DNA of 64,000 bases from Escherichia coli (GCF_030384885.1 NZ_CP128613.1); one strand, 5' to 3'. Shown: positions 19,545 to 29,393, counted from the stretch's first letter. Numbers and translations are program-made. The notes: generated by a model from the sequence alone, not told the origin.

Positions 19545-19885
19545 ACCGGGCGCCACACGCCGGATGCAGCCTGCATACGGGCACAAACATAAAAATATGT
19601 GCGAACTCGTAGGCCTGATAAGACGCGTCAGCGTCGCATCAGGCGTTGTGCACCGATAGCCGGATGCGGCGTAAACGCCTTATCCGGCCTACAAACGGGC
19701 ACACCCATAAAAACAGGCGCGGACCCGTAGGCCTGATAAGACGCGTCAGCGTCGCATCAGGCACCGTGCACCGATCGCCGGATGCGGTGTGAACGCCTTA
19801 TCCGGCCTACATACAGGCGCAAACATAAAAATATGTGCGGACTCGTAGGCCTGATAAGACGAGACAGCGTCGCATCAGGCACCGA
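19545..19885. repeat. Cluster of REP/BIME-type palindromic units between lfgJ and lfgK
   Basis: At least three alternating copies of GCCGGATGCGGCGTAAACGCCTTATCCGGCCTAC and GTAGGCCTGATAAGACGCGTCAGCGTCGCATCAGGC in irregular orientation. Confidence 0.85.
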
Positions 19886-19896
19886 ACGTCGGAGCC

Positions 19897-20196
19897 TCAT
19901 TTATGCTTCGGCGACAACTGCTTCACAATCATCGCCGCGATCCCTATCCCGTGCTGCTGCGCCAGGGTGTTACACAACTCATCGTCATAAAACCCCTGCA
20001 TCATGCGCACCGAATCGCTGTTAAATGGGTTATCTTTCGAATCAAACAACTCGTTGGTTTTACGCATCTCTTTCAGCATGTTGCGTAAAAAAATCGCCTC
20101 AAACTGTTCGGCGGCCTGCTTAATATCATTGGCCTGAACCTTCGGCCCCATTAACGCATCGCTGCCGTCAATCCCGCCGCTGGCGTTGACTTTCAT
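19897..20196 (-). CDS. lfgJ: FlgJ-like rod-binding protein (N-terminal domain only, no muramidase domain), Flag-2
   Basis: 99 aa, ...AAEQFEAIFLRNMLKEMRKT...; position after flgI. Confidence 0.75.
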   Translation of the reverse strand: MKVNASGGIDGSDALMGPKVQANDIKQAAEQFEAIFLRNMLKEMRKTNELFDSKDNPFNSDSVRMMQGFYDDELCNTLAQQHGIGIAAMIVKQLSPKHK

Positions 20197-21311
20197 CAGA
20201 TCACCTCCAGGTCGGCATCCAGCGCGCCCGCTTCATGCAGCGCCTGCAAAATCGACATAATGTCGTCCGGCGTTGCGCCTAAACTGTTCAGCGCATTGAC
20301 CAGCGTTTTCAGGCTGCTCGACTCCGGCAAACTCACCACGCCCGGACGGGCATGATTCACCGCGATATTGCTCTGCGGCGTTACCGCCGTACGCCCGCCC
20401 GCAAAGGCATTCGGCTGGCTGACGTTGCTGGTTTCGTTAATTGAGACGGTCAGGCTGCCGTGCGACACCGCCGCCGCGTGCAGCGCGATGCCATCGCCCA
20501 TCACCACCGTACCGGTACGCGAGTTAAACACCACGCGGGCGCGGATTTTCTCCGCCTGCACCTGCACATCATCCAGTTGCGACATAAACGCCACCCGCGC
20601 GCCGGGGCTGGTGGGCGCACGCACGGTGACGTTGGTGGAACTCTGCGCCGTGGCAATGCCGCCAAACGAAGCGTTGATCGCCGCCGCAATGTTGTTGGCG
20701 TCTTTAAACGACGGGCGTTTCAGGTTAAGCGTGATGGTGTCGCCCATCTGAAAATCGCTGGGGATTTCGCGCTCCACCGTCGCGCCATTGGGGATTAACC
20801 CGGCGGTCGGCGTATTAACCGTTACGCTCGAGCCGCTGGCCCCGGTGGCATTCATCCCGCCCACCACCACACTTCCCTGCGCCAGGGCATACACTTCGCC
20901 ATCTGCGCCGTGCAACTGGGTCAGCAGCAAGGTGCCGCCGCGAATACTTTTGGCATCGCCAATCGACGAGACGGTGACATCAATAGTCTGCCCACGCGAG
21001 TACATCGGCGGCAACGTGGCGCTCACCGCCACCGCGGCGACGTTTTTCACCTTCGGGTCGATTTTATTTGGCAACTGCACGCCAAACTGGCGCAGCATAT
21101 TGGTGATGGTCTGGTTGGTGAATTTGACCTGGTTTTTATCGCCCGTACCGTCGAGGCCGACCACCAGGCTGTAGCCGACCAGTTGGTTTTCACGCACGCC
21201 CTGTACGTTGACCAGCGACTCCAGCGATTGCGCCAGCGCCACGCCAGGTAGCGCCAGGCTTACGGCTACCATCACCGTTTTTATCCAGTTTTGCATTGCA
21301 CTCTCCGGCAT
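20196..21311 (-). CDS. lfgI: Flagellar P-ring protein (FlgI homologue), Flag-2
   Basis: 371 aa with signal peptide; synteny. Confidence 0.9.
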
Positions 21312-21976
21312 TAAATCGGGAACAGAGGATGGTTAAACAGCCGGGTCAGCCAGCCTGCGGCGTTGGCGTCGCTTAACGCGCCACGTCCGGCATAGGAGAT
21401 ACGGGCGTCGGCGATCCGCTGGGAAGAAACCGAGTTGTCATTCTGGATATCGTCGGCGCGCACCAGGCCGCTTAAGCGGATGTACTCATCGCCCTGATTG
21501 AGGGTGAGCCATTTCTCGCCGCGAATTTCCAGGATGCCGTTGGGCTGCACCGCATGGACGGAAACAGTGATCTCCCCGCGCAGACTGTTCTGCTGCTGGG
21601 ACGTGGCGCTGCCGTCAAAGTCGCGGTTGGCGTCGATGGAGCCGGAGAGGTTATTTTTGGTGTGACCAAATACCGTTGGCGCGGTGATATCGACGCTGTT
21701 GCTTTTGCCGAAATTGGTTTTCGCCTGTTTGCTCGACTGGGTCGATTCTTCGAGGATCACCGTCAGGATATCGCCCACGCGATAAGCCCGCCGATCGGCG
21801 GTTAGCGACCAGTTGTAGCCCGTTTCAAACACGCCCCCGGCACGCCCGTCTGCCGGAGGCGGCGCTTCGGTTTTCGGTGGCGCAAAGTATGCGTCGTCTT
21901 TTTTGACCAGAATGGCCTGCGATTCACACCCGCTAAGCAGGGGAAGCAGCGCCACCAGCCAGAGATAATTTTTCAC
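21311..21976 (-). CDS. lfgH: Flagellar L-ring lipoprotein (FlgH homologue), Flag-2
   Basis: 221 aa, lipobox LLSGC; synteny. Confidence 0.9.
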
Positions 21977-22042
21977 GTTCTGCCTGTTTAGTGTTGCAGG
22001 CCACGGGGTGGCCGGTTGTTTGGTGGGTTGGAGCGGGTTTGT

Positions 22043-22158
22043 TCCCCCTCACCCTAACCCTCTCCCCAAAGGGGCGAGGGGACCGATCGAGCGCGTTTTT
22101 ACATCGTGCTCCACTTTTCTCCCTCTCCCTGTGGGAGAGGGCCGGGGTGAGGGCATCA
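22043..22158. repeat. GC-rich composite palindromic element (boxC/RSA-like), copy 1
   Basis: CCCTCACCCTAACCCTCTCCCCAAAGGGGCGAGGGG ... CTCCCTCTCCCTGTGGGAGAGGGCCGGGGTGAGGG; same family as 29281-29393 (inverted) and 48941-48985. Confidence 0.7.
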
Positions 22159-27764: not shown

Positions 27765-27776
27765 GAGGCCGATGAA

Positions 27777-28205
27777 GTGAGTATCCGGTTACAACAGGTG
27801 AAGGCGTTGTTGCAGGGAATTCGTGACGACGACGCACTGTACGATTCCCTGCGCGAACTTCTCCAGCGTCAGCGGATCTGCATGATTCGCCGCGCCAGTG
27901 AAGAGTTGATGGCGGTAAACGACGAGATAACGCAGCACTATGAGCAGTTGCATGGGCATAGCCATCAGCGGCACAGCCTGCTGCAACTGCTGGGTGTCAG
28001 CGTAAATCGTGACGGTCTGGCGCAGGTGTTTGCCTGGCTTCCGGCGGTACAAAAAGCGGCAGCACAACAGTTGTGGCAACGCCTGGAGCAAAAAACGGAA
28101 CGCTGCAAAGCCTATAACGATAAAAACGGCGAGCTGTTGATTCGTCAGTATGAATTTATTCAGTCTTTTTTAGGCAGCGAAGCGGATTTTCTGTATCAGG
28201 AATAA
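27777..28205 (+). CDS. lfgN: FlgN-like export chaperone (GTG start), Flag-2
   Basis: 142 aa helical protein immediately after lfgM. Confidence 0.65.
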   Translation: MSIRLQQVKALLQGIRDDDALYDSLRELLQRQRICMIRRASEELMAVNDEITQHYEQLHGHSHQRHSLLQLLGVSVNRDGLAQVFAWLPAVQKAAAQQLWQRLEQKTERCKAYNDKNGELLIRQYEFIQSFLGSEADFLYQE

Positions 28206-28331
28206 CGCGAATACCTTCCCCATAGCGGAAACGGATTTTCCGCCTGATTTCCAATCCTTTGTTTTTGATGAAAAAAAATCCCGGCACGCTTATTGCACAT
28301 CCTGCACAGCATTAAAGACTGGAAGCCACCT

Positions 28332-29261
28332 ATGAGTTTTATTGAATGTTACGAACCGGAATATGTGCGCAATTTTATGGCGCAATATCCCGATTCGCCT
28401 TTATACGTCCGCAAGGTGTGGAAGAATGAGATTCGCCAGAGCCTGGCATTGACCGATATTGCCAGTTGCAAAGCAGTGCTCAACGATGCCAGGGCCTTTG
28501 AATTACAGCTTACCTATCGCCCTGTGGAAGAAAATGCCGCAGCACTCTCCGCGCGCGATGCGATAGTAAACCAGATAATTTTGAGCACCCTCACGCTCCC
28601 GGATTTAACCCCAGAGCTTTCACTGTATGCCGTCGGTATCCTGCTCTCCCGCGCCAATAAAATGCCGGGCAGAGACGGCGACACTCTTGCCCGGCTGACA
28701 ACGCTGCCGCAGGCGCTGGCCGATCACGCACAAAAAGGCACGCTACAGGCACAGTTCGCCCAGCTACCGCCCGTGCCACAGCTGGCGCGCCAACTGGTGA
28801 CACTGCTCGGCAGTTGTGCGTTTGACTGGTCGATTCTGCCAGAAAGCCCGCGCAAAGCCTCGCTACCGTTGCAGGTGACTTTGCTGACGCTGCACGACGC
28901 CAACAGCGAAGCCCTGTTACAGCATCAGCTTCAGACGCAGTGGCAAACCACCTGGCAACAGCATTTTGCCACCGCGCCGTGGATGATGCGTAACTGGCTG
29001 ATTTACCGCGTTTACCACGATGTGATTGGGCAGACTGACGGGGCGGATTATTGCCCGCTGGTGTGCGATTTTTACCTCATCCGCACGTTAATCAGTTTAT
29101 GGACGCTGGATGATTCACCGCTGCGGCAGGAGGATATTTTCGCCCTCTTCGCGGTGTTTGAACGCTGGCGAGTGAGTGAAAATGCGCTGTTAGTTCGCCA
29201 GCAAATTCAGTCGTTATGTGCCGCCGAGCCGCTGCTTTCAGCGTTTTCGCTGCTTACATGA
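28332..29261 (+). CDS. Hypothetical protein (about 310 aa) of unknown function embedded in Flag-2
   Basis: ORF 28293..29261; likely start MSFIECYEPEYVRNF; no recognisable motif by eye. Confidence 0.5.
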   Translation: MSFIECYEPEYVRNFMAQYPDSPLYVRKVWKNEIRQSLALTDIASCKAVLNDARAFELQLTYRPVEENAAALSARDAIVNQIILSTLTLPDLTPELSLYAVGILLSRANKMPGRDGDTLARLTTLPQALADHAQKGTLQAQFAQLPPVPQLARQLVTLLGSCAFDWSILPESPRKASLPLQVTLLTLHDANSEALLQHQLQTQWQTTWQQHFATAPWMMRNWLIYRVYHDVIGQTDGADYCPLVCDFYLIRTLISLWTLDDSPLRQEDIFALFAVFERWRVSENALLVRQQIQSLCAAEPLLSAFSLLT

Positions 29262-29280
29262 ATCGCTCTGTGCGCGCTGA

Positions 29281-29393
29281 TGCCCCTCACCCCGGCCCTC
29301 TCCCACAGGGAGAGGGAGAAAACCTGCGCCCAATTCAGCACCACGCTCGATCGGTCCCCTCGCCCCTTCGGGGAGAGGGTTAGGGTGAGGGGC
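29281..29393. repeat. GC-rich composite palindromic element (boxC/RSA-like), copy 2, inverted relative to copy 1
   Basis: CCCTCACCCCGGCCCTCTCCCACAGGGAGAGGGAG ... CCCCTCGCCCCTTCGGGGAGAGGGTTAGGGTGAGGGG. Confidence 0.7.

Follow-up and report, generated by a model that had tools for sequence, protein, structure and literature searches.

Palindromic repeats in the intergenic gaps of an Escherichia coli Flag-2 locus: probable ordinary copies of the REP/BIME and BoxC families, and a relic of a fic-associated array

In Escherichia coli (GCF_030384885.1 NZ_CP128613.1), a stretch of 64,000 nt (nucleotides), here called the window, contains the flagellar operons of the Flag-2 (lateral flagella) locus, in which several gaps between genes (positions 19,545 to 29,393) are occupied by palindromic repeats. 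The whole set of these repeats very probably consists of ordinary copies of two long-known E. coli intergenic families, namely REP (repetitive extragenic palindromic) units assembled into BIMEs (bacterial interspersed mosaic elements), and BoxC. In the same reading, an inverted pair of BoxC composites 7 kb apart is coincidental, and a further repeat at 31912-32015 is the relic of an array associated with fic genes. The kind of element is already known, both REP/BIME and BoxC being published families. A first-pass annotation of the sequence had reported such repeats in these gaps, and all of them are present where it had placed them, far beyond chance (Table 1).

REP units were defined as imperfect palindromes of ~35-40 nt with a Y or a Z consensus (GCCGGATGCGGCG...CGCCTTATCCGGCCTAC or GCCTGATGCGACGC...GCGTCTTATCAGGCCTAC). 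All eight Y and Z units, five in the lfgK-lfgJ gap (~420-421 nt long in the window) and three in the lfgG-lfgF gap, carry the 17-nt diagnostic arm-plus-tail motifs with 0 mismatches. They are extragenic and alternate in orientation (Z-,Y+,Z-,Y+,Z- and Y+,Z-,Y+), and two types of linker recur between them. The two Y units of the lfgG-lfgF cluster lie 100 nt apart, and the 118-nt period of the lfgK-lfgJ array is due to a longer, 34-nt tail-to-tail linker. Both BIME stretches fold strongly, with z = -4.9 and -7.1, in a folding tool that allows Watson-Crick and G-U pairs only.

An Rfam scan of positions 17000-34000 (E <= 1) matched naRNA4 (RF02564), a 77-position model derived from the K-12 element REP325, at 19612-19689(-) with 87.9 bits, at 19730-19807(-) with 78.5 bits and at 23055-23131(-) with 80.8 bits, the gathering score being 59.5. 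All three matches cover positions 1-77 of 77, and the best scores are on the transcribed minus strand. Besides these matches on the REP units, the scan returned a chance-level hit to PVT1_3, a vertebrate long non-coding RNA model (E = 0.68), and no match for BoxC or for the 70-nt unit described below. The Y/Z motifs and the Rfam matches thus agree on REP/BIME elements in the lfgJ-lfgK and lfgG-lfgF gaps, as the first-pass annotation had it. Because the naRNA4 matches are full and REP325 shares the 100-nt tandem period, the orientation within the operon and the build from Y, Z2 and linker, both clusters are classed, from their sequence, as BIME-2-type arrays, that is, Y and Z2 in variable tandem number, as in REP325. 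BIME-2 elements are mobilized by a REP-associated tyrosine transposase and are reportedly bound and cleaved by DNA gyrase. The K-12 RefSeq annotation holds no repeat_region features by which the units could be labelled. The 34-nt linker of the 118-nt unit is partly palindromic itself, and one copy, at 19713-19728(-), scores as a weak hairpin followed by a run of T in the direction of operon transcription.

Table 1. Repeat elements of the window, the fic relic, and the states of the occupied gaps among strains
Feature	Position	Strand	Remarks
REP array, lfgK-lfgJ gap	19557-19910		BIME-2-type; three tandem 118-nt units; period 118, 2.7 copies, 86% matches
Internally deleted Y	~19560-19580		lfgK-lfgJ array, beside five intact units
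Z2	19609-19650	-	lfgK-lfgJ
Y	19654-19692	+	lfgK-lfgJ
Z2	19727-19768	-	lfgK-lfgJ
Y	19772-19810	+	lfgK-lfgJ
Z2	19845-19884	-	lfgK-lfgJ
BoxC composite 1, lfgH-lfgG gap	22036-22160		type A(-) + 40-nt spacer + type B(+)
Type A	22046-22080	-	composite 1; identical to commonest K-12 type A sequence
Type B	22121-22153	+	composite 1; identical to MG1655 TMECO no. 1
REP cluster, lfgG-lfgF gap (178 nt)	22996-23134		BIME-2-type; order Y+,Z-,Y+
Y	22996-23034	+	lfgG-lfgF
Z2	23052-23089	-	lfgG-lfgF
Y	23095-23134	+	lfgG-lfgF
BoxC composite 2, lafV-glycosyltransferase gap	29270-29403		inverted relative to composite 1; 40-nt spacer
Type B	29284-29316	-	composite 2
Type A	29357-29391	+	composite 2
70-nt tandem repeat, 1.45 units	31912-32015	+	nhmmer 31913-31980, E = 2.2e-15, and 31983-32015
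fic 3' relic, 36 nt	32017-32052	+	translates to NIAKRQTASS, matching SoFic-like C-terminal domain
Single BoxC type B	48947-48981	-	between gmhA (lpcA) stop codon and yafJ
lfgK-lfgJ gap, states			1, 3 or 5 units; 185, 303, 420 nt
lfgH-lfgG gap, states			single REP; two REPs; BoxC pair (window, A10); BoxC triple (YA-1, MEI4B)
lfgG-lfgF gap, states			1 or 3 units; 78, 178 nt
lfgD-lfgE gap, states	25084-25106		window: 23 nt, empty; elsewhere 84, 159 or 261 nt, up to three units
lafV-glycosyltransferase gap, states			window orientation (window, 2020CK-00188); flipped in place (C21, YA-1, SMS-3-5, AF3); A half (Z1323); absent (NC101)
gmhA-yafJ gap, states			single B unit in window; three-unit BIME in K-12-like strains

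The GC-rich composite palindromes of the lfgH-lfgG gap (site 1) and the lafV-glycosyltransferase gap (site 2) are identified, by consensus, as BoxC, also published as PIT or TMECO. BoxC was found again as the PIT element and was later called TMECO (Bergler, 1992; Hoyne, 2000; Holder, 2015, PMC4666352). Its consensus is 5'-CCCTCNCCC-N3-6-GGGNGAGGG-N3-GGGNGAGGG, a G-rich sequence of the form CCCTCNCCC-loop-GGGNGAGGG-loop-GGGNGAGGG (Holder, 2015), in which type A has a TTA loop and type B a CCG loop; in K-12, all five pairs couple one A with one B on opposite strands (PMC4666352). On oligonucleotides, the G-rich BoxC strand has been shown to fold into an intrastrand triplex of the purine motif. 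In the window there are five exact matches to the TMECO consensus, against 0.00 expected from 100 shuffles. All five units are intergenic, and both pairs consist of an A and a B on opposite strands, whose hairpin ends face each other across the spacer. Thus, of the repeat families against which the first-pass annotation had proposed to classify the composite, boxC is the right one.

The same annotation had regarded the two GC-rich copies as related and inverted to each other, with a third, single unit near gmhA, and this is borne out. The composite arms (22042-22153 and 29284-29395) each measure 112 nt, show 88% complementarity and are separated by 7,130 nt, and in composite 2 the outer GTGCGCGC/GCGCGCA arms lengthen the palindrome to 134 nt. 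Composite 1 folds at -70.8 kcal/mol (z = -6.6 and -5.8 on the two strands) and composite 2 at -87.4 and -92.5 kcal/mol (z = -7.4 and -8.1). The composite belongs to a dispersed repeat family, matched in 5,425 of 5,426 complete E. coli genomes at a median of 18 places per genome; hundreds of these genomes have a 134-nt copy, 91% identical to composite 2, between phnK and phnL, where K-12 has the A half only. The K-12 hrpB-mrcB pair is arranged in reverse to the window pairs and has the flanking ATCAGCGCGCAC linker in common with them. The linker shared with a reversed arrangement suggests that the BoxC composites are mosaics assembled from units and linkers, and not a single element of fixed build.

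The TMECO consensus is also matched exactly in a metagenome-assembled genome of Pseudocitrobacter (L044 2884-2989) and in Buttiauxella agrestis (L091 2040-2072), which indicates that BoxC is not limited to Escherichia. Further, a small GC hairpin (GGCCACGGGGTGGCC) lies at 21999-22013, just 5' of the lfgH ribosome-binding site; it is found in BoxC-carrying alleles (window, A10, MEI4B) and not in REP alleles.

The contents of these gaps vary freely among strains. The comparison took in four complete Flag-2 loci besides the window, together with several junction fragments; the best-matching strain, used for locus annotation, is 2020CK-00188 (L001). The first-pass annotation had spoken of repeats colonizing the gaps, and the term is apt: in some E. 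coli strains these gaps measure 22-78 nt and hold one unit or none, and in others they have grown by steps of 100 or 118 nt. REP copy number changes among strains by whole Y-Z steps. The lfgD-lfgE gap is a further repeat hotspot, with one to three REP units in other strains (L001 24749-25009, L012 10035-10118, L014 9863-10021).

At two of the three BoxC sites of the window, REP and BoxC are alternative occupants of one gap in different strains. At lfgH-lfgG, 2020CK-00188 has REPs in place of BoxC, and the block that is exchanged is bounded exactly by the lfgG stop codon and the lfgH ribosome-binding site. The alternatives are seen when 21977-22179 and 48871-48991 of the window are set against L005/L006/L013 and L017, and the block spans the upstream stop codon to the downstream ribosome-binding site. 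At the lafV-glycosyltransferase site, the whole 134-nt composite, including its outer GCGCGC arms, is reversed in all four strains examined of the commonest length class (L010 505-700, L012 14277-14454, L013 and L014), with a spacer ~60% similar by eye; this could reflect either an old in-place flip or an independent insertion. In a search of the text of the TMECO paper, no mention of BoxC-by-REP replacement or of in-place flips was found (Holder, 2015, PMC4666352), and the sharing of one gap by REP and BoxC may be a modestly new detail. Throughout, the FlgG protein accession is identical in every annotated strain compared, whatever the gap allele.

The REP and BoxC elements behave as tolerated, unstable passengers of the flagellar operons. 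Their arrays grow and shrink by whole Y-Z steps, their composites are halved, flipped in place or absent, and the contents of whole gaps are swapped among strains. This agrees with the published accounts of BoxC loci and with the polymorphism of BIMEs. BIMEs are reportedly a source of polymorphism.

Among the alternatives, the one that survives best takes the ~134-nt composite (A, spacer, B) as a miniature inverted-repeat transposable element (MITE), independently inserted at lfgH-lfgG, lafV-glycosyltransferase and phnK-phnL and mobilized in trans by a transposase. The composite has terminal inverted repeats of up to ~34 nt, if the outer GCGCGC arms are included, is shorter than 200 nt and occurs in full length, with a recognizable spacer, at unrelated loci (phnK-phnL, 91% over 134 nt). 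Cover of the site-1 composite reaches 80% or more in 3,614 genomes, as against ~1,280 with Flag-2, and both orientations are known at one site. However, the alternative alleles differ over the whole gap, with no target-site duplication or clean empty site definable, and the spacers differ markedly between copies. Holder et al. saw no association with mobile elements (PMC4666352). In addition, four of the five K-12 pairs are oppositely arranged and have shorter gaps, which is more like a BIME-style mosaic of units and linkers than a fixed element. A MITE is a less likely description of the composite.

A second alternative is that the elements are selected, Flag-2-specific regulatory punctuation, which would fix the proportions of rod, ring, hook and junction proteins and hence be maintained in place. 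The REP and BoxC elements lie just 3' of the stop codons of co-directional cistrons and fold strongly on the mRNA strand, and would be transcribed within the polycistronic flagellar mRNA and fold there into very stable hairpins. The REP units have the same orientation as those of REP325, and the lfgJ-lfgK gap holds at least one unit in all five Flag-2 loci compared. An effect on expression, as distinct from selection for it, also belongs to the main reading. According to a 2026 preprint, REP325 attenuates the downstream gene in a partly Rho-dependent way and stabilizes the upstream mRNA, with no compaction of the nucleoid. By analogy, the REP arrays of the Flag-2 locus probably damp read-through to the downstream cistron and protect the upstream message. 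They could in this way tune the lfgF:lfgG and lfgB-J:lfgKL ratios, both of which would rise in proportion to the number of units. In published tests, BoxC had no promoter, terminator or in vivo polymerase-blocking effect, and its sole reported correlate is local sequence instability; we infer that the BoxC composites are neutral or mildly destabilizing, and they are best taken as a local source of sequence instability. The transcriptional punctuation suggested by the first-pass annotation is thus reasonable for the REP arrays and is not supported for BoxC. An intrinsic-terminator reading of the BoxC composites and of the hairpin at 31937-31976 was rejected, a consensus scan having found no terminator there; its two matches only were the weak one in the BIME linker and the small hairpin at 21999-22013, on the antisense strand.

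Selection for such punctuation is nevertheless quite improbable. Copy number, family and even presence of the elements vary freely among close strains at every site; the lfgD-lfgE gap is empty in the window and has up to three units elsewhere; and the FlgG accession stays the same across annotated strains whatever the allele. Free variation beside a constant FlgG points to tolerated passengers and not to a conserved regulator. The same combination, gap contents that differ beside a constant FlgG, offers a natural series for the effects of REP copy number, or of REP versus BoxC, on operon expression ratios.

The third alternative concerns the inverted pair. The first-pass annotation had noted that it brackets lfgG through lfgN and the 310-aa (amino acid) gene, and the bracketed segment indeed runs from lfgG to lfgB and through lfgA, lfgM, lfgN and the 310-aa gene; it had also suggested that the pair could support inversion, for which the genomes give no support. 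Within the 112-nt, 88% complementary arms, the longest run identical between the two composites is 39 nt, the next being 25 and 23 nt. An identity of 39 nt is just above the usually quoted minimum for RecA-dependent exchange. Inversion would part lfgH-lfgJ from the lfgB promoter and would for that reason show a phenotype. However, a synthetic inversion junction (21500-22097 joined to the reverse complement of 28750-29339) reached 80% cover in 0 of 1,280 complete genomes, the best matches ending at the element. The parental junctions are collinear, flgH|flgG in 1,269 of 1,275 matching genomes and lafV|glycosyltransferase in 1,275. A synthetic deletion junction, for strains with the composites in direct orientation, was likewise found in 0 of 1,279 genomes. 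Nor is the pair conserved: 2020CK-00188 lacks BoxC at site 1, the composite is flipped at site 2 in C21, YA-1, SMS-3-5 and AF3, and NC101 has none. In 2020CK-00188, the annotation of the homologous interval lists no recombinase gene, flagellar genes and LafV being its sole entries. It is thus extremely improbable that recombination between the composites inverts the 7-kb stretch from lfgG to lafV, as an on/off switch of lateral flagella or as a source of structural isomers; the pairing is coincidental, the two sites varying independently. What catches the eye in this flagellar cluster is merely two copies of a dispersed repeat, and there is no need to pursue it as a switch.

Several points weigh against the account of REP and BoxC as variable passengers whose inverted pair is coincidental. 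Insertion boundaries and target duplications were sought, and none could be defined, the alleles differing across the entire gap. The allele frequencies at lfgH-lfgG (single REP ~two thirds, BoxC ~15%) are estimates from a sample of 40 evenly spaced rows. Six of the 1,275 flgH|flgG records had less than 80% cover, and the one inspected was an element-only match. The genomes are consensus assemblies, in which low-frequency inversion isomers within a culture are not visible. With regard to function, every statement on this locus is made by analogy, and the 2026 preprint stresses the context dependence of REP effects. The naRNA4 matches indicate membership of the REP family and are not evidence for an HU-binding RNA at the locus. 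Finally, the terminator consensus scan found none after the elements in the operon direction, save the weak match at 19728-19713(-) in the BIME linker.

The repeat at 31912-32015 is not of the REP kind and has a different origin. The first-pass annotation had placed ~33-bp direct repeats and a hairpin between the convergent glycosyltransferase and cytidylyltransferase genes. Both features exist: the direct repeats (31912-31942 and 31982-32012) are 31 nt long, 90% identical and 70 nt apart, and hairpin arms of 18 nt each lie between them (31937-31954 and 31959-31976). They are not wholly intergenic, as the first repeat overlaps the end of the glycosyltransferase gene, over its final codons and its TAA stop (31921-31923). 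In the Flag-2 locus of Pseudocitrobacter faecalis, the order is glycosyltransferase, 2.5 units of a 70-nt repeat, fic and a convergent cytidylyltransferase. The window aligns to the Pseudocitrobacter locus on both sides (glycosyltransferase 87.5%, cytidylyltransferase 90.4%), and its repeats align to the array there. The 36-nt fic relic is 88.9% identical to the fic codons of Pseudocitrobacter L038. Because both flanks align, with 1.45 units and 36 nt of the fic 3' region between them, 31912-32052 is read from this alignment as what is left of a module, array plus fic, that has been deleted. The same 146 nt are present at this site in 107 E. coli genomes.

Elsewhere, the array is intact. An integrative element of FORC_029 has a ~80%-identical array of 70-nt period between a helix-turn-helix (HTH) gene and fic, with 7.4 copies according to Tandem Repeats Finder and eight units according to nhmmer. 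The idea of the 70-nt unit as a dispersed repeat was dropped, the apparent '8 places per genome' in E. coli being tandem copies of one integrative-element array; a plasmid search with the unit gave 3 matches only, two of them at fic genes. A 70-nt pattern scan, with one genome per species, yielded 92 stretches, 80 of which were listed and used. Among these 80, 17 have 2 to 8 pattern matches, mostly 70 nt apart; the multi-match genera are Citrobacter, Pluralibacter, Mangrovibacter, Atlantibacter, Pantoea, Erwinia, Buttiauxella and Pseudocitrobacter. A Fic-motif open reading frame (ORF) of ~358 aa directly follows the last unit on the same strand in 15 of the 17 stretches with at least 2 matches. 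Shewanella and Endozoicomonas are among several further gammaproteobacteria whose genomes have a single unit 5' of fic. Overall, arrays of 2 to 9 copies are found directly upstream of SoFic-type fic in many Enterobacterales (L038 5917-7164; L089 1497-2157; L016 6006-6563). In the intact homologue, Fic_N and Fic domains are joined to a SoFic-like C-terminal domain, and the protein matches solved SoFic structures. The start codon of fic is supplied by the last 70-nt unit (TTTTTTAAACATATG), with no visible Shine-Dalgarno sequence.

Seventy-four distinct 70-nt units share the conserved blocks TGTCGATAAAA, TTTTTT.AAACAT and ATCGACA. A structured-RNA reading of the unit was rejected, as the only pairing that RNAalifold retained over the 74 units was the invariant TGTCGA/TCGACA, which shows no compensatory changes, and the hairpin of the window is not conserved. 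Conservation of sequence blocks without compensatory changes favours a protein-binding or promoter module. CccR of Yersinia pseudotuberculosis, which belongs to class II of the Fic proteins and has an HTH at its C-terminus, acts as a repressor on its own promoter, where its operator consists of two inverted 10-bp boxes, 26 bp apart (PMC9755527). By analogy, it is tentatively proposed, at somewhat less than even likelihood, that the 70-nt unit is a self-contained promoter-operator module of SoFic-class Fic proteins, bound by their own C-terminal domain, that its tandem copies could serve as a copy-number dial or a decoy array, and that the Flag-2 modification cluster once carried an AMP-transferase. 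If so, that enzyme would have left its traces in the lateral-flagella modification cluster, as the array in the Pseudocitrobacter Flag-2 modification region and as decayed copies in ~107 E. coli genomes. The tandem fic-upstream array may be a modestly new detail. This side result is more useful than the main finding, in that it explains an odd repeat and brings out a conserved tandem module upstream of SoFic-type fic.

As to the surroundings of the repeats, positions 19000-30000 correspond to the E. coli Flag-2 locus at 94-97% identity and are at least 80% covered by one place in 955 genomes, and yafJ, gmhA/lpcA and fadE at 47500-50500 are 96-100% identical to E. coli chromosomes. According to the annotation of the best match and the Flag-2 literature, the minus strand carries lfgB-C-D-E-F-G-H-I-J and then lfgK-L, and the plus strand carries lfgA-M-N, the 310-aa gene and the glycosyltransferase gene; the 310-aa product is LafV, a FliB-type lysine N-methylase. 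The published Flag-2 variable region VR1 includes the glycosyltransferase and cytidylyltransferase. In the gap between these two genes, 2020CK-00188 has an insert of ~9 kb (L001 31801-40934), which carries several hypothetical genes as well as three transposase genes of the ISAs1 family, one being fragmentary, and SMS-3-5 has two extra genes; both are consistent with VR1. A separate, head-to-head REP pair, Y(-) and Z(+), lies at 39062-39144 in a 386-nt gap between divergent ORFs, which correspond to the sigma-54 activator and FliM/FliN-family protein genes of 2020CK-00188 (L001). Given its place between divergent ORFs, this pair likely lies in a promoter region and not in a 3' region.

Several known systems resemble parts of this locus. 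As in the fimS and hin switches, a segment, here with flagellar genes, is bracketed by inverted repeats. Unlike those switches, the window segment has no site-specific recombinase gene in or beside it, no orientation isomers were found in ~1,280 genomes, and the repeats belong to a dispersed family whose pairing is not conserved. The composites resemble BoxC/TMECO in their exact consensus, A and B types, inverted A+B pairing, intergenic position and variability among strains, including loss of half elements. They differ in that the window pairs have facing hairpin ends and a 40-nt spacer, whereas in K-12 just one of the five pairs is built so (nos. 17+18, 59-nt gap) and the other four are oriented oppositely with gaps of 16-27 nt.

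Similarly, REP325, which is described as repeats of Y, Z2 and linker and lies in the yjdM-yjdN gap of K-12, is a close counterpart of the Flag-2 arrays. Both consist of tandem, alternating Y and Z2 between co-directional genes of one operon, with identical orientation relative to transcription, and the lfgG-lfgF cluster has the 100-nt period of REP325. In contrast, the lfgJ-lfgK array has a period of 118 nt and 2.7 copies, compared with 5.8 in REP325. The Flag-2 arrays also match the naRNA4 model of REP325 over its full length, above the gathering score. Finally, the 70-nt unit differs from the CccR operator in the sequence and spacing of its half-sites and in its tandem amplification, 2 to 9 times, and in the window fic itself is gone. 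Like that operator, however, the units have conserved, widely spaced inverted half-sites (TGTCGAT / ATCGACA) and lie directly upstream of genes for Fic proteins of CccR-like build, with Fic_N, Fic and SoFic-like C-terminal domains.

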